Positions 2,777-22,492 of a stretch of DNA of 64,000 nucleotides are shown piece by piece. The notes beneath the pieces are model-generated. The model was given only the letters and a program-made list of their open reading frames with translations. It was not told where the DNA came from and did no database searches. The stretch covers positions 274,105-338,104 of the forward strand of contig CAZYIA010000001.1 of the NCBI GenBank assembly GCA_964646765.1. The letters run 5' to 3'. Origin of the DNA: an uncultured Candidatus Saccharibacteria bacterium. Lineage in GTDB: Bacteria; Patescibacteriota; Minisyncoccia; Phycocordibacterales; UBA9973. The position numbers were made by a program, and so were the translations under genes. Each line of letters opens with the position of its first letter. Position 1 is the first letter of the stretch.

Positions 2777-5578
2777 CTATTCGAGAATACTTTTTAAAAT
2801 ATCTTCAGGAACTTCTTTTGAAGCAGTAGACTCTTTTCGAGAAACATTAGATTCTGGAGAGGTTTCAGAAACTGACTCTGGTGATGAAGTTTCTTCCTTC
2901 GCTAATTCTTGCTCACGGGCTTTTCGCTCCTCTTCTAACTTCTTTTCTTGTTCTAAGGTTCGAGCTTCGGCTTCTTCTGCCGCCTTAAGAGCTTTTTGTT
3001 TTTCTTCTTGCTCAATTTTCACAGCCGCTTCAAGTCGGGCTTTTTCTTGCTGTTCTTTCCGAAGAGCTTCTTCATGGGCTACTTTGAGGGCTTCTGCTTC
3101 TCGTTTCCGTTCTTCTTCGGCCTTACGAACAACTTCTATTTCGAGTGCCTTCTTTTCTGCCTCAAATTTTTGACGCTCCTCTTCCTGCACTCGACGAACT
3201 TTTTCGAGAGCCTCCTGCTTTTCTTTTTCAATTTTTTCTTCAAGTGCTTTCTTTTCTGCCTCAATTCGTTCTTTTTCCTCTTTAGTTTTACGTTCCCGCT
3301 CTAGTGCTTCTTGCTTTTCGCGAAGAAGAGCCTCTTCTTGAGCTGTATGTTTTTCTTCATTAATGGTAGTGGTAGTTGGATCTTCACCACGTAGGACTGG
3401 ATCTATGTTTTTTGGTTCATTAAGTTCAGCTTCCTCGGCAAGTCCAATACCAGCTTGAGAAAGGGCTGTAGCCAGCGTATTTTTTGTTTCTTCTGCTGCT
3501 TCTTTCTTAGGAGTCATGAAAACAGGAGAAGCTACTGTTGGTGCATCTTTTTTAAGTGCAGAAAGCGATATTGTTTCTTGAGGCTTTTCAATAACTGGTT
3601 CAGCTATACCTTCTTGTTCTATCGGCTTTGTAGCAACTGCTGGCTTAGCTGGAGCGCCCATTGTTTTTGAAAGCGCTTGATTTAGGATACTTCGAAGTCC
3701 AGCGGTATCGGGAGCTTTACGTTCTTTTGTTACAGGAACTTTTACTACTCGAGGTGGCGGCGTGCGTGGAAGATCATCTTTTTTTGCTCCATCCGGAGTT
3801 TTTATACTCTGAGGCACTCGAAACGCCGTTTGCACTTGCGGTTGTATTTGTACTTGAGCTTCAGATGGCTTCTTATAAGCCCCTTTCGGTAATGGCATAT
3901 CATCTTTACCAGCCTTAATAACCCCAATAGGCGGCATATCAGGCCGATCTACCACGGGACGAACTTTTGGTCGTTCGCCAGTAGATCCTCCCCAATCACT
4001 CCTTGGTTTCGAAGAACCACCGGTAAATTCAATACCGAGCGCGGCAAGTGCATCGTATGAAATATTATCTTTCTTTTCTTTTGGTGGACGGAACCCTGGT
4101 GCCGGTTCAAGTTCACCTTGCTTAATTTTAAAAAGACATTCTTTACAATAAATTGGCAAACCTGGTTCTGGTTCAAACGGAACGTAAATGGATTTTTTAC
4201 AATTAGTACATTCAGCGCGATATTTGCCAACAGCTTCACTTCCCGCATTTTCTGGGTTACTGGTTCCTTGGCCAGGCACCGTTGAACTCCAACGGTTAAT
4301 TTCCTCCTCTACATCAGTGCGCGAACGAGTATACATGCGGCGTGAAGTATCAATAATATACTGTTCGGTTTCTTTTGATTCGTGCACCTCAAGTGGCGGC
4401 AAGGTTTTTGCTGAAAATGGTCGCGAGGTAACCCCATCCACCATGAGCTTTGCATAAATATGATAGTTCGGAAGGTTTACGAAATCTTCAATGACGAATT
4501 CCGGTTCAAATTCTTTTTCGAGTGCTTCGGCATCTTCTGCGCCAACACGGAAGATGATAATTGTTCCAACGTTACCAAACACGGCATCTTTCACCGCGCT
4601 ACCAGTTTCAGTTTCAAGCTGGGCAACATATTGATGCGCAATAGTAAGACATAAGCGATATTTTCGAGCTTCTGAAAGAATAGAAGCAAATGAATCGGTT
4701 ACGAAGTTTTGGAACTCGTCTACAAAAAGATAAAAGTCTTCACGCTTATTTTCTGGAATGCGCACACGCTCCATAGCGGAAAGCTGAATTTTGGTAATGA
4801 GCATTGCACCAAGAAGTGCTGAGTTATCTTCACCAATACGGCCTTTCGACACATTAACCAGAAAGATTTTTTTCTGGTTCATAATATCGAAAATGTTTAT
4901 AGTTGAACGCTGCTGGCCCACTACGTTACGTACGATATTTGATGAAAGGAATTGACCAACTTTGTTTTGAATCGGCGCAATAGCTTCATTACGAAACTGG
5001 TCACGCCATGCTTCATATTCGTGCACCCAAAAAGCCTTCACCACAGGGTCTTTCAAATTCCCGATGATGTACTGACGATAGTCCTTATCCACTAGCATAC
5101 GCGGAATACCAAGAAGTGTGGTATTAGGCGTATCGAGAAGCGCTAAAATGGTGTTGTTCAAAATATATTCCATTCGAGACGACCATGCGTTCGCCCAAAT
5201 TTTGGTGAAAATTCCCATCAAACCTGAAGCCACCAAGTGTTTATACTTCGGGTCATCAAGTTGCATTGGGTTAAAACCAATTGGAAAATCCGTATCCGCT
5301 GGATTGAGGTATACGACATCTTCTGCACGTTCTTTAGGAACAGCCGTTATGATTTTTTCTACGAGTTCACCGTGCGGATCTACCACACAAACACCTTCAC
5401 CGGTACGGATATTCTGGATAATCATGTTCTCCAGCATCACAGACTTACCGGTACCAGATTTACCAAGCACGTACATGTGCTGGCGTCGGTCTTTACGCTT
5501 AATGCCGAAAACTTGATCCATGCCACGGAAATGTGTCCGGGCAAAATATGTAATGTCCTGGTTTAGTGGAACTTCCAT
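2777..5578 (-). CDS. soluble VirD4/TraG/TraD-like (type IV coupling protein family) P-loop ATPase with long disordered/proline-rich linker, C-terminal CxxC...CxxC zinc ribbon and K/E-rich coiled-coil tail
   Basis: 933 aa; Walker A VLGKSGTGKS followed by VDPHGE (DPKGE-like motif of VirD4/TraG), Walker B YLFVDEFQNF, TIAHQYVAQL (TraG-D_C-like xQSxxQL region); no TM helices; zinc ribbon CTNCKKSIYVPFEPEPGLPIYCKEC encoded around 4125-4225; last ~190 aa are E/K/A/R-rich heptad-like low complexity. Confidence 0.7.
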   Translation of the reverse strand: MEVPLNQDITYFARTHFRGMDQVFGIKRKDRRQHMYVLGKSGTGKSVMLENMIIQNIRTGEGVCVVDPHGELVEKIITAVPKERAEDVVYLNPADTDFPIGFNPMQLDDPKYKHLVASGLMGIFTKIWANAWSSRMEYILNNTILALLDTPNTTLLGIPRMLVDKDYRQYIIGNLKDPVVKAFWVHEYEAWRDQFRNEAIAPIQNKVGQFLSSNIVRNVVGQQRSTINIFDIMNQKKIFLVNVSKGRIGEDNSALLGAMLITKIQLSAMERVRIPENKREDFYLFVDEFQNFVTDSFASILSEARKYRLCLTIAHQYVAQLETETGSAVKDAVFGNVGTIIIFRVGAEDAEALEKEFEPEFVIEDFVNLPNYHIYAKLMVDGVTSRPFSAKTLPPLEVHESKETEQYIIDTSRRMYTRSRTDVEEEINRWSSTVPGQGTSNPENAGSEAVGKYRAECTNCKKSIYVPFEPEPGLPIYCKECLFKIKQGELEPAPGFRPPKEKKDNISYDALAALGIEFTGGSSKPRSDWGGSTGERPKVRPVVDRPDMPPIGVIKAGKDDMPLPKGAYKKPSEAQVQIQPQVQTAFRVPQSIKTPDGAKKDDLPRTPPPRVVKVPVTKERKAPDTAGLRSILNQALSKTMGAPAKPAVATKPIEQEGIAEPVIEKPQETISLSALKKDAPTVASPVFMTPKKEAAEETKNTLATALSQAGIGLAEEAELNEPKNIDPVLRGEDPTTTTINEEKHTAQEEALLREKQEALERERKTKEEKERIEAEKKALEEKIEKEKQEALEKVRRVQEEERQKFEAEKKALEIEVVRKAEEERKREAEALKVAHEEALRKEQQEKARLEAAVKIEQEEKQKALKAAEEAEARTLEQEKKLEEERKAREQELAKEETSSPESVSETSPESNVSRKESTASKEVPEDILKSILE

Positions 5579-5713
5579 TTTCTAATCCGCCTCATAGGAG
5601 AGGTTATTTAAAGTTACCTCACAAGTATACCATACTAGGCAAACGAAAGATGAGTTCTTTGACTCAAAGTTAATTTGTGTGCTTAAATTGACCGAATTTA
5701 AAAAGTGAACTAT

Positions 5714-6247
5714 ATGGAAAAAAACGTGGAATTAAATTTTGACTTAACCTTTGATGAAAGCGTAACAATTTACTTTGAAGAATCTGCGCATTCCTTCAAA
5801 ACAAAGTTTTCAGCTACCTTAATGCTTATGGCTATTGCCCACACCCATTTTCGCGGAAGTATGCACAAGGTACTCCGTAGTATTGATACTATCAACCGTG
5901 CTGATATTTTACTTTCAGGAAAAACAGTTAATGAAATAACGAAAGTAAAAAAATTTTTACGCGCACATAAACTCACAGGAACTACATACCGATACTTACA
6001 TGCGTACTGCTACAACTACTTTGTCGAAAAACCAAAGTTTATACAATACCAATCTTTAGGAGAACCTCATGCAGGTGAACTACTCTTACCGTGTGGTCTC
6101 AGATTTATATCTCTATACCAACAAAACTTACTTATCGAAGTAGAAACCTACTATGAGCAATCACTCATTAAAGACTGGGAATACGAGGAACTCCGGTACC
6201 TCATATATAAAAGTGATTTACGTCCCCATAACCCCCTTTTGAACTAA
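5714..6247 (+). CDS. hypothetical protein (no recognisable domain)
   Basis: ORF track 5705..6247 (GTG), ATG at 5714 (MEKNVELNF...); only plus-strand gene inside the ATPase/Cys-rich locus; followed by a strong terminator. Confidence 0.4.
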   Translation: MEKNVELNFDLTFDESVTIYFEESAHSFKTKFSATLMLMAIAHTHFRGSMHKVLRSIDTINRADILLSGKTVNEITKVKKFLRAHKLTGTTYRYLHAYCYNYFVEKPKFIQYQSLGEPHAGELLLPCGLRFISLYQQNLLIEVETYYEQSLIKDWEYEELRYLIYKSDLRPHNPLLN

Positions 6248-6252
6248 CAAGT

Positions 6253-6287
6253 AACAACCTGCTTTCCTCGGCAGGTTGTTCTTTTTT
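6253..6287. terminator. rho-independent terminator (AACAACCTGC-tttcctcg-GCAGGTTGTT + T6), also abuts stop of minus-strand gene 6286..7950
   Basis: 10-bp perfect stem, 8-nt loop, TCTTTTTT tail. Confidence 0.65.
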
Positions 6288-7950
6288 ATGCAAACGCTTG
6301 GTTATAACAACTTTCGCAGTAGAGAATTTCCGGTCGGTTGGGAGAATATGATGACTCAATTTTTTTATTGCAATTTGCGCATTCTCGAGTGAAGAGCTTA
6401 TTTGGCCCGCGAGCTTTAAATCGGCGCAGGTGTCGACATTCGGGACATTGCCGCGGAAGTGGAATAGAAAGTTTTTTATAGAACGTAAACTCATTTGGAA
6501 TAATGCGATAATTCTTTTTACATTCGGTACACTCAAAAATTTCTTTTACAATCTCGTCCTTTGTTTTGCCAATTGAATCTGATACATCAGCCCAGCTAAT
6601 TGTCGCTTTTCCGAATGTTCCTCGCGGCGTTTCTTCCCACTTAAAACCCTGAGCGAGAGCTTCTTCTTTCGTAAGTGGGTACTCAATCATAGCTGATGAT
6701 TCGTTATAACCGAAAGAAGAAAAAGTAGCCGGATAAAATTCACCATAACTTCCCTCTTGTTTCATTTTTGCTACTATTTCGGAGCGCAACTTTTCATATT
6801 CTTCTGGAGAATATTGCTTATTTAAGATCGTGTTTTTTGCTTTTCGAAAACCAACGCAACCAAAAATATTTTGGGAGTTTGGACAATTCACGGAGTAACC
6901 AACGAACTGAGAGCTCCAACAATAGAATCCGCAAATAACATTGGACCCTTCAATACCAGTATTCATGGTGTTGTAGAGTAACTCCGCTCCACGACCAGCA
7001 GTATTACAGTCCATGCAGTCTTTAGCCCCACGCCAAGCATGTACCGAATAGGCACAATCTTCGGCGTCATACGAATGAAAACAATGGCGATTATTTTTAA
7101 CGTTTGTCATGTAATTCCCAGTCGAATTGTAAACGTTATACACTTCGGCAAATTTTCGTGGCTGATCTTTAATAAACTCTGTAAATTGTTTTCGAAAAGC
7201 CTCTACTCCAGAATGAGTATCGAGACGAAACTCTGCTAACTTTTTTTCGTATTCTTCTTTAGAATATTGTGCATTAAAAATACAGTATTTTTGATTACGA
7301 AGATTAATACAGCCTAAACAATTAGTGCAGCCGCGACAATCCAACAAAAATGCACTATCGGTACATGAGTGGACGCTTTTACAATACTTAATTCCGTATG
7401 AATCATAGCAGTCATCAACTTCGTACGATCGTTCAACCTGTTGGGTAAATGAACAATCGACGAGATCTTTTGAAACTTGAATCCAATATGAGTGAATTGC
7501 ATCTTCATTGTTTGAACTTTCAATAACGAAATAACAATTTTTATTGTCAGCCGCGTAATTCATGTACTCACAATTAACTGCCCGCATAGAAACAAGGCCT
7601 GGTTTTGGCACTTTCATCCATAGTTCATACCACTGATCGAGAAATGGCCGCGATGGATCATAGTCCATAGCGTAATCTGCCCCGCTCCAGTCTTCCGAAA
7701 ACCAACAGTCATAACACCAAACCACATCAGGTTTATTCAGCGAAAACTGACAGATAGTATCTTTTTTACACTTATCACAAGGACGCTTATAAAAACTGCG
7801 TTCGTTGCGAAAATTAAGCCGTAATTGGGATCGGCATTCCGGACATAGTTTTGGCGGCAATACACCTATTTTTTCATAGAAGGAAAAATCATCAGGTTCG
7901 ATAACAAATTCACTATTACATTTAGTGCAAAATCGATTTTCTGTCGCCAT
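6286..7950 (-). CDS. large cysteine-rich multi-zinc-ribbon protein, paralog A (function unknown)
   Basis: 554 aa, ~45 Cys, no signal peptide/TM; N-terminal ribbon CTKCNSEFVIEPDDFSFYEKIGVLPPKLCPECRSQ; two internal Cys-rich modules ending in ...CLGCINLRNQKYCIFNAQYSKEEYEKK and ...FGCVGFRKAKNTILNKQYSPEEYEKL; C-terminal tandem ribbons CTECKKNYRIIPNEFTFYKKLSIPLPRQCPECRH and CANCNKKIESSYSPNRPEILYCESCY. Confidence 0.7.
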   Translation of the reverse strand: MATENRFCTKCNSEFVIEPDDFSFYEKIGVLPPKLCPECRSQLRLNFRNERSFYKRPCDKCKKDTICQFSLNKPDVVWCYDCWFSEDWSGADYAMDYDPSRPFLDQWYELWMKVPKPGLVSMRAVNCEYMNYAADNKNCYFVIESSNNEDAIHSYWIQVSKDLVDCSFTQQVERSYEVDDCYDSYGIKYCKSVHSCTDSAFLLDCRGCTNCLGCINLRNQKYCIFNAQYSKEEYEKKLAEFRLDTHSGVEAFRKQFTEFIKDQPRKFAEVYNVYNSTGNYMTNVKNNRHCFHSYDAEDCAYSVHAWRGAKDCMDCNTAGRGAELLYNTMNTGIEGSNVICGFYCWSSQFVGYSVNCPNSQNIFGCVGFRKAKNTILNKQYSPEEYEKLRSEIVAKMKQEGSYGEFYPATFSSFGYNESSAMIEYPLTKEEALAQGFKWEETPRGTFGKATISWADVSDSIGKTKDEIVKEIFECTECKKNYRIIPNEFTFYKKLSIPLPRQCPECRHLRRFKARGPNKLFTRECANCNKKIESSYSPNRPEILYCESCYNQAFA

Positions 7951-7968
7951 TTTTCGATTCTAGCACGC

Positions 7969-9756
7969 TTACAAATAACGTGCCTGGTAACAGCTCTCGC
8001 AGTAAATAGTTTCTGGCTTTTCTGGGGCATAGGTCGTTTCAAATTCGTTTGAGCACGCTCCAGAATGCTGGTGACCAGTTTCATCACACTGACACTTTCG
8101 GTGCCATAATTTCATCGGACCCCGAGAACGGAGACGCATGTAATGACGACAGTTTGGGCAAAGGCTAGGTAATGGCAAGCCAAGTCGTTTATAAAACTGG
8201 AGTTCCTGTGGCACTAGGCGAAACGCTTTCGAACATAAATGTCCTTCACAGGCACCTTGGTGGGCGCATTCGATAACTTCGTTTAAAATAGTACTTTCAT
8301 TTACTTCAGACAGTGAATTTGGAACAGTATCTTTACTCATCGTAATGGTATAAGACTTTTCTTCTGGTTCTTTCCAAGTAAAACCCTGGGCCAAGGCTTC
8401 TTCTTTTGAGAGTGGGTAGTAATCAAAAGCAATAGTTTCGTTGTAGGCAAACGGCGAAAGTTCAGCCGGGAAAAATTCTCCAAACTTGTATACTCTTCCC
8501 TTTCCATCTTGGTACGGCATGGCATTCATGTGCTCAATAATCTTCGGCACAAGTTTTTCGTATTCTTCTTTGGTATAGCGCTTGTTTAAAATCGAGTAAC
8601 TACCATTCTTCACTCCGACACAACCAAAGCAATTCTGGTTCGATGGTGAGTTGTAGAGATACATTGAGTTTGTCGATGACTTTGCATAAATGCAGAACGA
8701 AACATTTTGACAGCCTGAGAACACGCCAAACGAGTCATAAATGAGCTCAGAACCATGACCAGCATGTGAAGCGTTTCGAGCATCTTTTATATCACCGCCT
8801 GAAAGAAAGAAGTTTTTTAAATCTTCTGAACCAGGAACTAAATCAAAACAGTTAATACAGTTTTTAGCATTGGCAATATTATCACCGGTGCAATTAACTG
8901 ATTTAATAATGTGGGCGAAACGATGCGGAAACGTCAGCTTAAATTCCTCAAATTGCTTACGGACTTTTTCTAAGCCTAGACGAGTATCAAGCTTCAGTTC
9001 TTTTGCCTTCGCTTCATATTCTTCTTTTGAATATTCTTGGTTAAAAATGCAGTGCGATTTATTGCGGAGCGAAACACAACCAATACAGTTGTCACAATTT
9101 ACACAGTCATACAGAAACGTTGAATCCGAACAGCTTTTACAATATTGACCATAGCGAAGCTTGTAACATTCTTGCGAATCAGTACACTCGTAGCACAAAT
9201 TACATTTCTCAACCAAATATAAATCCTGACTATCACGAGAATGCATATTAAAAGTACTGTAGGAGCAATCTTCATTGTAGTCACCACCAAAAACGAGATA
9301 GCAATTTTTATTACTCTCAGTACAGTTACAGTAATCACTATTCACCGCATTCCAGTTCATGAGCGAAGGCCACGGCACTTCGCGAATTAGTTCCTTGAGT
9401 TGTTCAAAAAACGGCTTTGAAAAATCAACATCTTTGCCATAGCTATATGGATCCCAGCCATCACCCCACCAATATTCGCGATCATAAACCGTTAGTGGCT
9501 TGTCGTCAGAATAGATAGAGATTATTTTTTGACCTTCTTTTCCGGGGGCGTTATCAGTACGTCGATACAGAACATTTTGGTTGCGAAACACCATGCGGCG
9601 CACGAACTGACATTCTGGACACCAAGTTGGTGGCGGCACTTTCATTTTCTGATAAAAGGCTAAATCATCCGCATCCAACAAAAATATCTTACTGCAATTT
9701 TTACAGGCAACTTCCATATGCCTATAGTACTCAAAAATGCTCCGTATACAAACCAA
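7969..9756 (-). CDS. large cysteine-rich multi-zinc-ribbon protein, paralog B (function unknown)
   Basis: 595 aa (true start may be MEVACKNCSK at 9717); same architecture as 6286..7950: N-terminal ribbon CKNCSKIFLLDADDLAFYQKMKVPPPTWCPECQF, internal modules ...CIGCVSLRNKSHCIFNQEYSKEEYEAK and ...CFGCVGVKNGSYSILNKRYTKEEYEKL, C-terminal ribbons CSKAFRLVPQELQFYKRLGLPLPSLCPNCRH and CSNEFETTYAPEKPETIYCESCY. Confidence 0.7.
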   Translation of the reverse strand: MVCIRSIFEYYRHMEVACKNCSKIFLLDADDLAFYQKMKVPPPTWCPECQFVRRMVFRNQNVLYRRTDNAPGKEGQKIISIYSDDKPLTVYDREYWWGDGWDPYSYGKDVDFSKPFFEQLKELIREVPWPSLMNWNAVNSDYCNCTESNKNCYLVFGGDYNEDCSYSTFNMHSRDSQDLYLVEKCNLCYECTDSQECYKLRYGQYCKSCSDSTFLYDCVNCDNCIGCVSLRNKSHCIFNQEYSKEEYEAKAKELKLDTRLGLEKVRKQFEEFKLTFPHRFAHIIKSVNCTGDNIANAKNCINCFDLVPGSEDLKNFFLSGGDIKDARNASHAGHGSELIYDSFGVFSGCQNVSFCIYAKSSTNSMYLYNSPSNQNCFGCVGVKNGSYSILNKRYTKEEYEKLVPKIIEHMNAMPYQDGKGRVYKFGEFFPAELSPFAYNETIAFDYYPLSKEEALAQGFTWKEPEEKSYTITMSKDTVPNSLSEVNESTILNEVIECAHQGACEGHLCSKAFRLVPQELQFYKRLGLPLPSLCPNCRHYMRLRSRGPMKLWHRKCQCDETGHQHSGACSNEFETTYAPEKPETIYCESCYQARYL

Positions 9757-9782
9757 CGGAGGACTGTGTCAAAATAGTGACA

Positions 9783-11246
9783 CTAGATTAGCGGCTCAGC
9801 GACTTCTACTTTTTCAGCAGGCGCTCCTCCACCATCAGATTTATTACCACGAGTAATAGCCGCTTTTTCTTGAGCAGAACGAATGATGGTTGCTTCTTCT
9901 TCGGCAATAAGTTTCTTGGCGGCGTCGGCTGAGATAGCAAATTTACGACGAGAAGCTTCAATAATTTTTGTGCGAAGTGATCCATGAGCAGCTGGCAATA
10001 CTTTCAACGTTTCAGCAGAAAATGGATCATATGATTCACCGTCGATAGTCATTTTAACGTAAAACTCTCCCACACCGAGGTTAATCATATCTTTTACATC
10101 GAAAATCGGAGCAAATTCTGGTTTGAGTTTTACGGCATCATCACCACCCACGCGGAAACAGATAATAGAACCAACGTTACCGAGCACGGCTTGAGCAACA
10201 CGTGGTGTCAGCTGACCAACGTATTGGTGCGCTACCGTAAGGTTAATAGAATATTTACGCGCCTCAGAAAGAATGTTTTCGAAAGTATCGGTCACCACGT
10301 TTTGGAACTCATCCACATAGAGATAAAAATCGTAGCGCTTGTCGTGTGGAATTTTTGCTCGCGCCATACCAGCTTGCTTAATTTTGGTCAGGAACATTGC
10401 ACCGAAGAACGAAGAGTTTTCTTCACCAATCTTACCCTTACAAATGTTGATGAGCACAATTTTTTTGTTGTTCATCAGCCATTCAATGTCAATTTTGTTT
10501 TCCTTCTGGCCGAAAATGTTACGGAGCATCGGATCAGAAAGAAATTGCCCGAGTTTGTTAACAAGCGGGATAATAGCGTCGGTATCAAATTTTTCCGACC
10601 AGTCGGCGAATTCGATTGCCCAGAAGCGCTTCACCATATCGTCTTCAATGTACTCAACCACTTTTTGACGATAGTTACGGTCGGTAAGCATCGAAATCAT
10701 TCCGCGCATGGTTGCGTATGGATAGTCGAGAAGCGCGAGTGTGGTAAAGCGGAACACGTGCTCAAGACGCGGCGTCCAGTTAGCACCGAATTGCTTTTCC
10801 AACACTTCAATCAAACCTTGGGTTAGTTGGTGTTTGAATGCGGGGTCAACGTTAGCGAGCGGATTAAATGAGGCCGGATAGTCCATGTCAGACGGATCGA
10901 TGATGCATACGTCTTCCATACGGTTCTCTGGAATAAAGTCGAGAATGTCATCAATAAATTCTCCGTGCGGGTCGATGACACAAATGCCGTGGCCATAGGC
11001 AACATCCTGGCGCACCATCAGTTCCTGGAGTTTTGATTTTCCCACACCAGACTTCCCTACAATGTAGAGGTGGCGGCGGCGGTCAACGCGTTTAATACCA
11101 AAAACGTATTTCTTTTCTTCGAGAGCGGCCACATAGTTGGTGCGGCCGATAAATGACGCGTCTTCTGGAGGCACTTTACCAAACTCCGGCAGTTCTGTCG
11201 GTGGCGGCGCGTATTTAATTATTTGAATCTTATTCGCTCGTGCCAT
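9783..11246 (-). CDS. soluble VirD4/TraG/TraD-like P-loop ATPase (paralog of 2777..5578 N-terminal 480 aa, no C-terminal extension)
   Basis: 487 aa; IVGKSGVGKS, IDPHGE, YLYVDEFQNV, TVAHQYVGQL, GNVGSIICFRVGGDD - same motif order and spacing as the 933-aa protein. Confidence 0.7.
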   Translation of the reverse strand: MARANKIQIIKYAPPPTELPEFGKVPPEDASFIGRTNYVAALEEKKYVFGIKRVDRRRHLYIVGKSGVGKSKLQELMVRQDVAYGHGICVIDPHGEFIDDILDFIPENRMEDVCIIDPSDMDYPASFNPLANVDPAFKHQLTQGLIEVLEKQFGANWTPRLEHVFRFTTLALLDYPYATMRGMISMLTDRNYRQKVVEYIEDDMVKRFWAIEFADWSEKFDTDAIIPLVNKLGQFLSDPMLRNIFGQKENKIDIEWLMNNKKIVLINICKGKIGEENSSFFGAMFLTKIKQAGMARAKIPHDKRYDFYLYVDEFQNVVTDTFENILSEARKYSINLTVAHQYVGQLTPRVAQAVLGNVGSIICFRVGGDDAVKLKPEFAPIFDVKDMINLGVGEFYVKMTIDGESYDPFSAETLKVLPAAHGSLRTKIIEASRRKFAISADAAKKLIAEEEATIIRSAQEKAAITRGNKSDGGGAPAEKVEVAEPLI

Positions 11247-13670: not shown

Positions 13671-13768
13671 AATGGGCTTTAGTATACCCTAGGGAGCAAA
13701 TGGAAGCATGTGGAGAAAACACGCCACAACTACAGCATAAAAGACCTGGTAATAAACTTTTTAGAGAG

Positions 13769-13839
13769 TCGGGGTGCCGAGAATCGAACTCGGTTCTCAC
13801 GAACCCGAATCGTGCATACTACCGGTGTACTACACCCCG
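13769..13839 (-). tRNA. tRNA-Pro (anticodon CGG)
   Basis: Manual fold: acceptor CGGGGUG/CACCCCG with C1:G72 (typical bacterial tRNA-Pro), U8A9, D-stem GUAC/GUAU, anticodon stem CACGA/UCGUG, loop UUCGGGU, T-arm CCGAG-UUCGAUU-CUCGG, discriminator A. Confidence 0.8.
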
Positions 13840-13944
13840 AGACGAAGAGGAGAATACCACATTTCATGTATTTTATCAGCTGAAATTGTCGTCAGGGATA
13901 TTTTCTGTCTTTGTGGTCACAAATATTTTTCCTGACGGAAAAAT

Positions 13945-14048
13945 TTCGCGACCCCGGCTCGCGGTTTTTGCCTTTCGCTACGCTCAAACAAAAACATCGT
14001 TCCGCCTTCCACATGTACGCAAAAATCCCCAGTAGTGGGGATTTTTGG
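13945..14048. repeat. conserved tRNA-flanking element copy A (approx. 100 nt, two hairpins; possible sRNA or tRNA 3' trailer); ends in hairpin 14021..14046
   Basis: Homologous to 15116..15200 and 22322..22414: shared 5' ttcgcgaccccgg hairpin and 3' ..tcCG.CtTCCAC....C-AAAAA-TCCCCA-gtag-TGGGGA-TTTTT; lies 7 nt from 3' end of tRNA-Ala(UGC). Confidence 0.55.
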
Positions 14049-14053
14049 TCATG

Positions 14054-14126
14054 TGGACCCTAGCGGATTCGAACCGCTGACCTCCTCTTTGCAAAAGAGG
14101 CGCTCTACCAACTAAGCTAAGGGCCC
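14054..14126 (-). tRNA. tRNA-Ala (anticodon UGC)
   Basis: Manual fold: acceptor GGGCCCU/AGGGUCC with G3:U70 Ala identity pair, D-stem GCUU/GAGC, anticodon stem CCUCU/AGAGG loop UUUGCAA, T-arm AGCGG-UUCGAAU-CCGCU, discriminator A. Confidence 0.85.
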
Positions 14127-14196
14127 AAATAAAGTTGTACGGGTATCTAAATGTATTCTCCTGAACTTTTTTGTTAGTAGAGCGCCTACGGCGGCT

Positions 14197-14226
14197 TTCC
14201 TCTCTACTTGCCAACTAAGCTAAGGG
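14197..14226 (-). repeat. duplicated 5' fragment of tRNA-Ala(UGC) (acceptor 5' strand + D-arm), tRNA remnant
   Basis: ccaactaagctaagggcccaaat is an exact copy of 14108..14130; downstream part diverges and includes an inverted copy of the anticodon-stem region (gtagagcgcc). Confidence 0.6.
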
Positions 14227-14317
14227 CCCAAATGAAGCTCTAACGGCACTATAGTACCGCATTTCGGCTATTTCGCAAGTATTTTTGGCATATTTTATGG
14301 TAAGCTAATGCATCAGT

Positions 14318-15016
14318 ATGAAGAACCTAGAGCCAAATTCAGGGAAACAGCTCACTATTAACGTACAAGGAATAAACTACGCCCGTTTTCCAGTTAAAAC
14401 TCCTGTCATTAAAAGTGGTGATGATGTTGCTGCTATTCTTAAAAATCTTGTATACAGTGAACTTCAACCTGGCGACACCCTTTTCATCAGCGAAAAAATT
14501 ATCGCTATTTCTCAAGGCCGAGCGTTTAAAATTTCGGATATTCATCCGAGTGCCTTGGCTAACTTTCTGGTTCGATTCGTACATAAATCCAAGTATGGCA
14601 TTGGCTTAGGCTCACCCTGGACAATGGAGCTCGCTCTACGTGATGTTGGTGCTCCACGAATTTTATTTGCTGCCTTTTGTGCTGCTTTAACAAAACCATT
14701 TGGTATAAAAGGAGTTTTCTATCATGTAGCTGGAAAGGATGTAAATGCAATTGATGGCCCATGCGACTATACCCTTCCACCATATAATGAGTACGCAAAA
14801 CTTGGACCCAAAAAACCTAACGAAGAAGCAAAAAAGATCTCAGGTGCGCTTAATGTACCAGTTGTTATCATTGATGCCAACGACCTTGGGGTAAACATTC
14901 TTGGCCGATCATCAAAAGAAATATCTCTTGATTGGGCAAAAGCAATCTTCAAAGACAACCCACTTGGCCAGGCTTCACAACAAACCCCTGCAGCAATCGT
15001 TAGAAAAACAAAATAG
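14318..15016 (+). CDS. CofE/F420-0:gamma-glutamyl ligase-like family protein
   Basis: 232 aa; TLFISEKIIAISQGRA and GIGLGSPW segments resemble the F420-ligase (PF01996-type) fold; assignment from memory of family pattern only. Confidence 0.4.
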   Translation: MKNLEPNSGKQLTINVQGINYARFPVKTPVIKSGDDVAAILKNLVYSELQPGDTLFISEKIIAISQGRAFKISDIHPSALANFLVRFVHKSKYGIGLGSPWTMELALRDVGAPRILFAAFCAALTKPFGIKGVFYHVAGKDVNAIDGPCDYTLPPYNEYAKLGPKKPNEEAKKISGALNVPVVIIDANDLGVNILGRSSKEISLDWAKAIFKDNPLGQASQQTPAAIVRKTK

Positions 15017-15018
15017 TT

Positions 15019-15032
15019 GACCGCACCGGACT
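15019..15032. repeat. 14-nt direct repeat of the 3' end of tRNA-Ala(GGC) (gaccgcaccggact = 15210..15223)
   Basis: Exact 14-nt match 190 bp from the tRNA 3' end, immediately after the stop of the CofE-like gene. Confidence 0.55.
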
Positions 15033-15115
15033 TTCTGCCTACCGCAGAATCGTGTATCACGAATCACTAAGCATAATTCTTCTCCGTCAGTCGACAGATC
15101 GAATTCTGCAAAGTG

Positions 15116-15200
15116 TTCGCGACCCCGCCTCGTCTGTCGCATTGCGACATGGCTCCGGCCTCCACAAGTATCAAAAAATCCCAAGCAGTTGGGATTTTTC
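15116..15200. repeat. conserved tRNA-flanking element copy B; ends in hairpin 15173..15199
   Basis: ttcgcgaccccgcctcg...ctCCGGCCTCCACaagtatc-AAAAAA-TCCCAA-gcag-TTGGGA-TTTTT; 8 nt from 3' end of tRNA-Ala(GGC). Confidence 0.55.
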
Positions 15201-15207
15201 TCTCTAG

Positions 15208-15280
15208 TGGACCGCACCGGACTTGAACCGGTCACCTCTCCCATGCCATGGGAACGCTCTACCAGATGAGCTAGCGGCCC
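15208..15280 (-). tRNA. tRNA-Ala (anticodon GGC)
   Basis: Manual fold: acceptor GGGCCGC/GCGGUCC with G3:U70, D-stem GCUC/GAGC, anticodon stem UUCCC/GGGAG loop AUGGCAU, T-arm ACCGG-UUCAAGU-CCGGU, discriminator A. Confidence 0.8.
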
Positions 15281-15325
15281 GAAATGTCGGGACAATGTAA
15301 CACGAAACACTTATTTTGGAAAAGG

Positions 15326-16210
15326 TTATCCTTTCACCAAATCAATTGCGTGTTTTAAAAACTCAGGCATTTTTGAACCAACCGCTTCAAGAGCAATTGG
15401 CATATAGCGCAAAGGGTGCAGTAGTGGATTTGATTCAATCGCACCAACATGAATACCATCTTTTGCGCGAGTAAAATGAATACTCGTCAGATGTTTTAAC
15501 CCAAGTGTTATATACAGTTCCTTTGCTCGAGCAGTAATTTCTCGAGCATCAACTCCTCCAAGTAAACGGGGTTTTACAAAAGTGTACCCAGAAAAACTAT
15601 ACGAACCTAACACAACCGGCGGAAAAGCATACGGATGTTCACCACGAAATGTATCAGTCACTAAAACCGCAATATCCTCGCCAAAAGCTAAGGATTCAAT
15701 TGTTCCTCCACTTACCTTCTGAAAATGAAGTGCAAACAACCTTGCTAGCTCTTCTCGTGTTTTCACTGTTTTAAATGGCAGCGACTGACCAGGTAAGCGA
15801 ATAAGCCATGGTGGTGGCAATTTTTGCGAAACTATACCAGCCATATTTTCAATCGAAGTAACCTCTGGATTGCGCATCAAATCAGCAATGAGTATCGTTT
15901 TTGGCGTCTGATGAAAGTGTGGCATTACTCCCGAAACAACGGGTAAACCAATTTCACTGAATGAAAATAGCCCAGTATGTTGTGGGGCTGATAAGAGCGA
16001 CAACAGCACATCTACCGAAGAAACAATATCACCGGCATTTACCTCTTTTCCTCGAATGTGCCAAACTCCGTCACGAGTTATCAAAATATCTATGCCCTGG
16101 TGCGAATGCGCTAAGTCATTTTGAACAAGATTCAGCACGTACGAACCTGCTTCAAGAGAATGAAAATATTCCGGACCTGTTCCACCACGAATAATGCCAA
16201 CGCGAATCAT
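15326..16210 (-). CDS. ddl: D-alanine--D-alanine ligase family protein (ATP-grasp)
   Basis: 294 aa; N-terminus MIRVGIIRGGTGPEYFHSLEAGSYVL matches Ddl N-domain pattern (G-I-x-x-GG-x-S-x-E-x-x-x-SL-x-SG); short for Ddl. Confidence 0.5.
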   Translation of the reverse strand: MIRVGIIRGGTGPEYFHSLEAGSYVLNLVQNDLAHSHQGIDILITRDGVWHIRGKEVNAGDIVSSVDVLLSLLSAPQHTGLFSFSEIGLPVVSGVMPHFHQTPKTILIADLMRNPEVTSIENMAGIVSQKLPPPWLIRLPGQSLPFKTVKTREELARLFALHFQKVSGGTIESLAFGEDIAVLVTDTFRGEHPYAFPPVVLGSYSFSGYTFVKPRLLGGVDAREITARAKELYITLGLKHLTSIHFTRAKDGIHVGAIESNPLLHPLRYMPIALEAVGSKMPEFLKHAIDLVKG

Positions 16211-22188: not shown

Positions 22189-22321
22189 TGGTTTAGTGTA
22201 GCATTTGAGCTCATAAGTTAATAAGTAAAATTCTACAGGAAGACGCGCTCTACGGTCACTGACACTTTTCCATCACTAAACTTGTGAGCCATAATAATTT
22301 GCTCGCCGTCGCTCACAAATT

Positions 22322-22414
22322 TTCCAGCCCCGGACTCAGCTGTTTTTCTTGCTAGAAAAACATGCTTCCGTCTTCACTGCACAGCAAAAAATCCCCAGCA
22401 GTGGGGATTTTTTG
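22322..22414. repeat. conserved tRNA-flanking element copy C; ends in hairpin 22386..22413
   Basis: ttccagccccggactcagctgtttttc...aaaaacatgctTCCGTCTTCACtgcacagc-AAAAAA-TCCCCA-gcag-TGGGGA-TTTTTT; 7 nt from 3' end of tRNA-Glu. Confidence 0.55.
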
Positions 22415-22420
22415 TGGCAG

Positions 22421-22492
22421 TGACCCTACGGGGAGTCGAACCCCGGTTAACGGATTGAGAACCCGCTGTCCTAACCACTAGACGATAGGGCC
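22421..22492 (-). tRNA. tRNA-Glu (anticodon CUC)
   Basis: Manual fold: acceptor GGCCCUA/UAGGGUC, D-arm GUCU-AGUGGUUA-GGAC (Glu/Gln-type), anticodon stem GCGGG/UCCGU loop UUCUCAA, T-arm CGGGG-UUCGACU-CCCCG, discriminator A. Confidence 0.75.

Follow-up and report, generated by a model that had tools for sequence, protein, structure and literature searches.

The window analysed here is a 64-kb stretch (64,000 nucleotides) of contig CAZYIA010000001.1 from an uncultured Candidatus Saccharibacteria bacterium. Its minus strand carries an intact tRNA-Ala(GGC) gene, convergent with a cofE-like gene of the F420-0:gamma-glutamyl ligase family, and between the two lies copy B, one of three related segments (copies A, B and C) that each sit directly 3' of a minus-strand tRNA gene (Table 1). 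An earlier reading made from the sequence alone (the sequence-only reading) had reported a 14-nt direct repeat of the tRNA-Ala(GGC) 3' end flanking this segment. The 14-mer, GACCGCACCGGACT, does occur exactly twice in the window, at 15019-15032 and 15210-15223, and allowing up to two mismatches adds one further, unrelated match; at that tolerance 0.12 chance matches are expected, and the observed count was reached in none of 100 shuffles. Alignment shows that the repeat is longer, growing to 20 nt, TAGTTGACCGCACCGGACTT (15014-15033) versus TAGTGGACCGCACCGGACTT (15205-15224), with 19 of 20 positions identical and 191 nt from start to start. Shuffled downstream sequence never equalled this repeat, either in a test with 200 shuffles or in another with 300. 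The proximal copy, DR1, comprises the last 4 nt of the T-loop (from A57), the 3' T-stem, the 3' acceptor strand, A73 and the trailer CTA. Placement of the repeat inside the tRNA acceptor and T-arm thus holds for the copy at 15210-15223, but not for the distal copy, DR2, which overlaps the TAG stop codon (15014-15016) of the convergent cofE-like open reading frame (ORF), its last three bases being the reverse complement of that codon. None of the five tRNA genes in the window encodes CCA.

Related contigs were located through the proteins encoded beside the insertion site. In one of these, L003, the ddl-like protein is 60% and cofE 84% identical to that of the window, and the gene order is the same: UvrC, ddl-like, tRNA-Ala(GGC), convergent cofE, tRNA-Ala(TGC), tRNA-Pro, a 358-aa protein, GDH and a VirD4-like protein. 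The window tRNA-Ala(GGC) gene is one base off its L003 orthologue and, by eye, identical to the copies in contigs L085 and L086; cofE-like orthologues are present in L003, L085, L086 and L049. The L003 tRNA-Ala(GGC) gene abuts the cofE stop codon with zero gap (..GGTCCACTAGTTTATTTT; ...GGTCCACTAGTTTATTTTACG), and the window differs from this state by exactly 171 nt plus one additional copy of the 20-mer, 191 nt in all. In L086, where cofE is 78% identical, 69 nt separate tRNA-Ala(GGC) from the tRNA-Pro gene behind it, and no element is present. A covariance model of the element, R1 (described below), likewise gives no match in L003, L004 or L086. DR2 meets the cofE stop codon in the window just as the intact tRNA meets it in L003, from which it follows that the occupied state derives from an L003-like state. 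By parsimony, with two relatives empty (L003 and L086) and this stop-codon contact, gain in the window lineage would be the simpler reading. We consider it highly probable that at 15014-15224 an inserted RNA cassette lies between two copies of the tRNA end. The same locus is carried by Logan contigs from SRR11845619, SRR11845633 and SRR11845634; two of them are 100% identical to the window where aligned and the third has the same gene spacing, so that no polymorphism emerges from them. The closest relative by ddl-like identity (69%) is contig P0002, whose gene spacing matches the L085/L086 arrangement.

Table 1. Features at the insertion site and the other element copies in the window.
Feature	Position	Strand	Basis or remark
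tRNA-Ala(GGC), intact, CCA not encoded	15207-15280	-	ARAGORN; Rfam tRNA 52.9 bits
Proximal repeat copy (DR1), AAGTCCGGTGCGGTCCACTA on the tRNA strand	15205-15224	-	Exact search and alignment
Distal repeat copy (DR2), AAGTCCGGTGCGGTCAACTA, one C-to-A mismatch	15014-15033	-	Displaced tRNA 3' end
Inserted segment, 171 nt, missing from the L003 empty site	15034-15204	-	Window/L003 comparison
Extended hairpin H1, core AAAAATCCCAACTGCTTGGGATTTTTT at 15173-15200	15161-15211	-	Fold prediction
Element core, copy B	15054-15165	-	R1 match 15095-15165, 36.5 bits, E = 4e-6
Small hairpin UUCUGCGGUAGGCAGAA between element tail and DR2	15033-15049	-	Fold prediction
cofE-like gene (F420-0:gamma-glutamyl ligase family)	14318-15016	+	Pfam PF01996; insertion-site landmark, convergent with the tRNA
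Copy A (H1 and core)	13913-14052	-	Directly 3' of tRNA-Ala(TGC) 14053-14126; R1 68 bits
Copy C	22284-22419	-	Directly 3' of tRNA-Glu(CTC) 22420-22492; R1 94 bits

The inserted DNA is one copy of a conserved structured non-coding RNA, and the RNA is encoded on the tRNA strand. We aligned 27 cores and drew a structure of 32 pairs by inspection (P2a, P2b, H2, P4 and H3, with the interrupted P4 and H3 scored as separate helices). Standard pairs occupy 88.8% of cells in the 27 cores versus 66.8% in column shuffles, with 0 of 500 shuffles reaching the observed value, and 26 of the 32 pairs show changes on both sides. Pairing falls to 39-49% when partners are slid by 1-3 columns. This control is somewhat favourable, since the structure came from the same sequences, even if the alignment itself was never fitted to it. 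The diversity of pair types and the double changes are the stronger evidence for the fold. The three-base helix P2b, for example, has variants that include GUC/GAC, GGC/GCC, GUG/CAC, AGC/GCU, AAC/GUU and GAA/UUC. P4 bears on the strand: in 25 of the 27 copies its pair 69/122 is a wobble, G-U or U-G, and pair 63/125 is G-U in 11. Such pairs would be mismatches on the opposite strand, and the RNA therefore lies on the tRNA strand. An opposite-strand RNA, in the form of a small RNA convergent with the tRNA and ending at H1, was ruled out on the same ground, P4 being largely G-U on the tRNA strand.

R1 was built from the 27-core alignment (its E-values are rough) and finds exactly three copies in the window, A, B and C. 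The core of copy B contains helices P2a and P2b, hairpin H2 (15135-15149) and a P4/H3 stalk (15056-15123). Copy B is a divergent member: H2 is short and G/C-rich, the H3 stalk long and atypical, and the tail reads GUGAUAC. Even so, its predicted fold is strong (-82.6 kcal/mol, z = -6.1). The outer pairing of its H1 joins UCCAC of the tRNA (15207-15211) to GUGGA (15161-15165). By inspection only, H1 is terminator-like; a simple terminator scan did not flag it, probably because the T-run counts as paired with the A-run. The sequence-only reading had equated the bracketed DNA, put at about 175 bp, exactly with the conserved element. One element copy is indeed there, but 171 nt separate the two 20-mers and the family-conserved element covers about 15054-15206, while the last 20 nt of the bracketed DNA (15034-15053) belong to a small hairpin that was not seen beside the other copies read. 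Four ORFs of 51-111 aa run across tRNA genes and structured RNA (14975-15310, 15052-15207, 13700-14035 and 13984-14214); they are almost certainly not genes, and the one at 13700-14035 is called as a gene in Logan contig L001.

Copies elsewhere were sought with two exact-pattern scans, one of one genome per species and one of JGI metagenomes, and the copy numbers are a lower bound. Together with R1 on the fetched loci, the scans gave about 40 copies, alongside the expected number of chance matches. The hosts are Candidatus Saccharibacteria, Paceibacterota, Nomurabacteria, Kaiserbacteria, Minisyncoccia and unclassified Patescibacteria; further copies come from metagenomes of groundwater and other origin. 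Most copies lie directly behind a tRNA gene or a tRNA 3' fragment, the tRNAs being those for Ala, Glu, Lys, Arg, Leu, Val and Ser; syntenic tRNA-Ala and tRNA-Glu loci are frequent sites, and some copies form tandem arrays. The element is about 140-150 nt long: a terminator-like hairpin, pairing into the 3' end of the tRNA, precedes a five-helix core. Every true copy, read on the tRNA strand, runs from the tRNA end (..CAC) through a short trailer x, H1 (with its A-run and U-run), x' (the complement of x) and GUG(G)A to the core. The core reads AAG-N-C-GGA-NNN-AUG, hairpin H2 (loop often AGCA) and N'N'N'-GA-G-N'-C; it continues with GGG-UCG-NG, hairpin H3, AUAUU and CNUGACC-AC, ending in a 7-bp stem and AC. 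Rfam 15, applied with gathering and E-value thresholds to the window and the nine loci holding the best copies, returned only tRNAs, and SRP RNA, 6S, 5S, box C/D and self-cleaving ribozymes were dropped as identities for lack of an Rfam signal. In the searchable literature we found no described tRNA-linked RNA of Patescibacteria; the group I introns in anticodon loops that are the subject of PMC13011429 are unrelated to this trailer RNA family. The family is thus undescribed in Rfam 15 and the searchable literature.

Some other tRNA-associated sequences were seen along the way. A second type of tRNA-trailer element, with the motif CUGUACUGYUCCUGUAAGGARAGA followed by sequence like a tRNA 3' end, occurs at L017 1500-1690 (minus strand), L020 3811-3880 and L022 about 330-400; the L017 example stands behind a tRNA-Ala(GGC), after an H1-like hairpin of its own. 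It may be a sister family of like design. In the window, a partial copy of the 5' part of tRNA-Ala(TGC) (GGGCCCTTAGCTTAGTTGG...) lies about 100 nt upstream of that tRNA (14165-14245, minus strand), followed by a segment able to pair with the D-arm (inverted repeat 14098-14115 / 14170-14187), and this fragment is kept in the relatives L011 (2655-2759) and L049 (835-905). In leaders of distant Patescibacteria, a miniature element core stands between a tRNA 5' part and a hairpin resembling an anticodon arm (L020 3420-3560, L021 1710-1870, L013 4130-4290, L029 4780-4930); given these tRNA-like leaders, the RNA module also occurs upstream of tRNAs.

The repeat beside copy B recurs elsewhere in the family. 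For the 29 copies that have both an intact tRNA upstream and enough sequence downstream, we aligned the last 28 nt of each tRNA plus 6 trailer bases to the 90 nt after the element tail. Eight of these have a repeat of their own tRNA downstream with a score unseen in 300 shuffles: copy B (Ala(GGC), 20 nt), L047 (Ala(TGC), 24 nt, perfect), L013 (Ser, 26 nt with a gap), L055 (Leu, 20 nt), L070 (Glu, 17 nt), L024 (Val, 16-18 nt), L023 (Glu, 12 nt) and L020 (Ala(TGC), 11 nt). All eight repeats start 15-21 nt before the tRNA end, in or adjoining the T-loop. The distance between repeat and element tail is 0-4 nt in five of them and 20, 43 and 48 nt in the other three. These distances speak to the suggestion, also made in the sequence-only reading, that copy B is the remnant of something larger. 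In concrete form, a large integrated island or prophage would have lost its interior by deletion. A regenerated tRNA together with a displaced 3' fragment serves to recognise genomic islands, as in Islander (PMC4383910), and the window shows both. However, a downstream repeat lies within 0-48 nt of the element end in eight independent cases, the bracketed unit has nearly the same small size in all of them, its content is a conserved RNA as opposed to decayed coding sequence, and a Pfam search of 26 window ORFs revealed no integrase fragment. We regard a decayed island as very improbable, and the remnant idea is not supported by these comparisons.

We lean, by a little, towards the reading in which the repeat marks insertion of the cassette into the 3' part of tRNA-Ala(GGC) through T-loop recombination, with the cassette as a non-autonomous integrative unit. 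The 171-nt cassette would have entered the 3' part of the tRNA gene, leaving the segment from A57 to three bases past the end duplicated; DR1 would complete the working tRNA, and DR2 would be the displaced original end, still at the cofE stop codon. We hypothesize that the tRNA gene recombined conservatively, in the T-loop region, with a small DNA unit already bearing a matching tRNA 3' segment, as at att sites of the Ms6 or P4 type; a recombinase would presumably have been supplied in trans, with a circular intermediate. The empty junction expected for the window would read ...GGTTCAAGTCCGGTGCGGTC[C/A]ACTATTTTGTTTTTC, and the expected circle junction would join the element tail ...GGTAGGCAGA to AAGTCCGG...CCACTAGAGAG. 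As an account of how the duplication itself arose, site-specific recombination ranks first by analogy with known systems, and we advance it tentatively. The proposal that the family is a miniature mobile or integrative element targeting tRNA 3' ends gains from the insertion and from the seven other members with a repeat; it falls short in that the element is a conserved structured RNA, not just a mobile scar, and no link to an enzyme was found in the searches given below.

The left junction admits a route that needs no site-specific enzyme. Replication template switching, or homology-facilitated illegitimate recombination with foreign DNA, could have used GGTCCACTAG at the tRNA end as a left anchor; if copying then resumed on the original template 20 nt upstream, in the T-loop, the tRNA end would be copied a second time and so duplicated. 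Copy B and the copies in L036 and L049 have the left junction CCACTAGA in common despite different tRNA-Ala genes, and the empty L003 site also reads GGTCCACTAG. The repeat has the sequence of its specific target, as target duplication predicts, and the locus is a rearrangement hot spot in which cofE orientation and tRNA order vary among L003, L085, L086, L049 and the window. Random microhomology, though, would not be expected to give eight independent repeats, at seven tRNA species, that all start within the same few T-loop bases, nor to place the repeat within 0-4 nt of the element tail in five of the eight. We think this route unlikely, if worth keeping in view.

Pairing between element and tRNA raises the question of whether the downstream repeat is itself a working part of the RNA. 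The sequence after H1 is complementary to the last bases of the tRNA and its trailer, and H1 thus reaches into the tRNA. Across the family, the base before CAC covaries with the base after GUG and tracks the tRNA type: a C-G pair in 15 copies at tRNA-Ala (..UCCAC / GUGGA), a U-A pair in 15 copies at tRNA-Glu (..GUCAC / GUGA) and a G-C pair in 3 copies at tRNA-Lys and tRNA-Arg (..GUGCAC / GUGCA). In the three window tRNAs that carry elements, the C after the discriminator A is the first base pairing with the element GUG; in L020 and L055 the trailer reads CCA, by chance. In L024 (tRNA-Val), L013 (tRNA-Ser) and L055 (tRNA-Leu), a segment of 17-27 nt immediately 5' of the core is antisense to the whole stretch from T-loop to 3' end; GGGACTTGAA, for example, is the reverse complement of TTCAAGTCCC. 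DR2 could accordingly be imagined as functional: the antisense between H1 and core would pair alternatively with the tRNA end or with the distal copy, the latter closing the element and freeing the tRNA, and this double complementarity would preserve identity to the tRNA. Besides the three antisense segments, the predicted duplex between downstream repeat and element exceeds shuffled repeats by far in L024 (z = -5.7), L013 (-4.3), L020 (-4.3) and L055 (-2.8), and in these four members fold modelling suggests that the repeat may be functional rather than a scar. The same test gives values no better than shuffled for copy B (z = +0.6), L047 (-0.6) and L023 (+0.2), so the suggestion does not extend to copy B. 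The antisense of copy B amounts to GUGGA, opposite which DR2 has its C-to-A change, and a functional DR2 leaves the unoccupied sites unexplained. A direct pairing of DR2 with copy B RNA was also set aside, as the minimum free energy fold pairs GGCCGGAGCC with DR2, the centroid does not, and the pairing conflicts with the conserved P2 helices. A functional origin of the repeat seems to us quite unlikely.

In the copies read, we saw by eye no convincing promoter between H1 and the core, and on this basis we infer that the cassette is co-transcribed with the tRNA and then cut out. Fold models make the long H1 stem a likely site for double-strand-specific processing. One copy, in L075, has no upstream tRNA; a TATAAT box about 7 nt before its hairpin is compatible with transcription in the tRNA direction. 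The repeat, the insertion as compared with related contigs, the structure and strand of the RNA and the recurrence of repeats that start at the T-loop are observed; co-transcription, processing, a function of the RNA, the recombinase and a circular intermediate are inferred.

Tandem arrays occur in L024, L030, L059, L066 and L070; in L024 and L070, a second element follows the downstream repeat, which stands in as its 'tRNA end'. This arrangement recalls tandem duplication by unequal crossing-over of a unit running from T-loop to element end, after which the second element would have been lost and its leading tRNA fragment left behind. Escherichia coli provides a precedent in the tyrV repeats, where three 178-nt units, the last reaching 19 nt into tyrV, contain the 171-nt rttR. 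Against such a history for the window, a single element lies between the repeats with no trace of a second, L003 and L086 lack an element at tRNA-Ala(GGC) and so lend no support to a pre-existing copy, and the T-loop boundaries of the unit are left unexplained. Unequal crossing-over is, in our estimate, improbable.

The reading of copy B as a cassette inserted by T-loop recombination has to be weighed against several observations that count in the other direction. No clear repeat follows 21 of the 29 testable copies; among these are copies A and C, at which the sequence-only reading had proposed to look for analogous repeats and alignment to the downstream sequence, compared with shuffles, gave none. 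Among the 26 window ORFs searched against Pfam, none matched an integrase, a transposase or a reverse transcriptase; ORFs across the bracketed DNA (e.g. 14975-15310, 15052-15207) were outside that scan, and 171 nt is too short for an integrase gene. Clustering of neighbour proteins at 31 loci, with flanks of up to 4 kb, brought up only housekeeping families as recurrent (UvrC, ddl-like, Mur ligase, PBP and two unannotated) and no recombinase. Two pattern scans of IMG/VR viral contigs gave nine matches and no copies, one match being a chance match when read and the other eight lacking an R1 match. Neither at the 31 loci nor among the viral-contig matches did we find an autonomous relative that has a recombinase and shares the ends of this family. 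Conserved housekeeping synteny, with a ddl-like gene by tRNA-Ala and a Mur ligase gene by tRNA-Glu, suggests that much of the distribution could be vertical. Had the repeat copies recombined in L003 and deleted what lay between them, the same two states would result as from an insertion in the window. The closest relatives of copy B lie behind a different tRNA-Ala, so a conservative recombinase would need an unsampled donor linked to tRNA-Ala(GGC), or else the repeat would be a target duplication made in another way. Lastly, in the four members in which the downstream repeat pairs with antisense of the same RNA, selection could maintain the repeats.

Other observations point to movement. There are empty sites and tandem arrays, and element lineages do not track their tRNAs. 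The nearest relative of copy B, at 89% identity, is behind the tRNA-Ala(TGC) of L049; that tRNA is 95% identical to the window tRNA-Ala(TGC), yet the latter carries a different element, copy A, whose own nearest relative is behind tRNA-Ala(CGC) in L040. The core of copy C is 98% identical to that in L044, while the 76 nt upstream, at the tRNA position, are only 58% identical. L003 has lost a core behind tRNA-Ala(TGC), and L003, L049, L085, L086 and the window differ in how the whole locus is arranged. We speculate that the family is a previously unrecognised kind of small mobile RNA-gene cassette, in which a tRNA 3' segment from T-loop to end is joined to a long processing hairpin and a folded core of about 100 nt. 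It would spread among Patescibacteria tRNA genes by T-loop recombination, its RNA aiding its own targeting or the handling of tRNA 3' ends; taken whole, this proposal is a doubtful one. The segment antisense to the tRNA end offers a possible route for such a role.

Among known systems, the att logic of tRNA-targeting integrative elements is closest to the duplication. In Ms6, the attP core consists of 26 bp from the 3' end of a tRNA-Ala, T-loop included, and small changes can retarget it among tRNA-Ala genes (PMC1762012). Like Ms6 and the Islander islands, the window has an intact regenerated tRNA and a displaced 3' fragment in direct orientation, with an identity block from T-loop to tRNA end (20 nt in the window versus 26 bp in Ms6). 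The attL/attR-like signature named in the sequence-only reading stands in so far as the repeats bound an insertion absent from L003 and L086 and run from T-loop to tRNA end as in Ms6; the integrase it implied was not found in the searches above. As with tRNA-integrated islands, relatives (L003, L086) have an unoccupied site and several tRNA-Ala isoacceptors are used. Unlike those islands, the bracketed DNA is 171 nt and not kilobases, it has no integrase or coding capacity and holds a conserved structured RNA, and the family occurs at no fewer than seven tRNA species, at most of its copies without a repeat.

Cis-mobilizable elements (CIMEs) are kilobase-sized deletion derivatives of known integrative and conjugative elements, with attL/attR-like repeats and no recombinase of their own. 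Copy B resembles them in that att-like repeats bracket recombinase-free DNA, but no parent element was found for it in the loci and viral contigs searched, and its cargo is a conserved RNA. Miniature elements of the IS200/IS605 type have subterminal hairpins and an omega-RNA scaffold, and they make no target duplication. Copy B is likewise small, with a hairpin near one end, a structured RNA, a short conserved target and a target-like element end (..CCAC), but the window has a 20-nt duplication, no TnpA or TnpB nearby and no Rfam match to omega-RNA. The IS200/IS605 assignment fails on the target duplication and on the lack of a recurrent non-housekeeping family near the copies.

The nearest architectural analogue is the E. 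coli tyrT/tyrV trailer with its RttR (rtT) RNA, and the likeness is architectural only. There, the spacing is 178 nt with 19 nt of tyrV and a 171-nt rttR; in the window, the spacing is 191 nt with a 20-nt repeat. In both, the last 19-20 nt or so of a tRNA open a unit of about 180 nt that carries an RNA of about 170 nt. No similarity in sequence or structure was detected: Rfam gave no RtT match at E <= 10 on 13700-15400, and R1 has no match in the E. coli locus. The E. coli units form a tandem array at one locus in one clade, whereas the Patescibacteria family is dispersed over many tRNAs and phyla with insertion polymorphism. The case can best be seen as a combination of two known themes, tRNA T-loop att duplication and tRNA-trailer RNAs, around an undescribed RNA family.

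The neighbourhood of ddl-like, tRNA-Ala, cofE and tRNA-Pro genes (window 13768-16210) is rearranged in every relative examined (L003, L049, L085, L086), and each breakpoint holds a tRNA gene. In the window and in L003, cofE and tRNA-Ala(GGC) converge; in L085, L086, L049 and the P0002 contig (the last by annotation), cofE is co-directional and precedes that tRNA. In L086, tRNA-Ala(TGC) is inverted. Behind tRNA-Ala(TGC) in L003, at 7384-7440, H1, part of x' and the terminal CCAC are kept and the core of about 95 nt, present in L085 and the window, is gone, which looks like an internal deletion of the element. Upstream of tRNA-Ala(GGC), a 294-aa protein (15326-16210) has no Pfam match of its own; its distant homologues (26-33% identity) have D-Ala-D-Ala ligase domains, and it is therefore a strongly diverged ddl-like protein. 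Among 5.8 billion proteins it has only five closer relatives (50-69% identical). Further away, the Pfam scan identified two VirD4/TraG-like type IV coupling proteins (2777-5578 and 9783-11246), and the large ORFs between them (6286-7950 and 7969-9756) have no match or a weak, sub-threshold one. The 2777-11246 block also follows GDH in L003 and the P0002 contig, and by its conservation it appears chromosomal and not a recent mobile element.

Despite the very small genomes of Patescibacteria, several copies of an RNA of about 150 nt are kept behind their tRNA genes, with a fold conserved across phyla. The covariance model can be used to annotate regions in which gene callers now place spurious ORFs, such as 14975-15310 and 13700-14035. 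Co-transcription with tRNAs and pairing with their 3' ends, if real, would give the RNA a bearing on tRNA maturation or control. If the cassette truly moves by T-loop recombination without a recombinase of its own, it would be the smallest integrative unit known with classical tRNA att logic, and such movement would account for the rearrangement hot spots at tRNA loci of Patescibacteria genomes.

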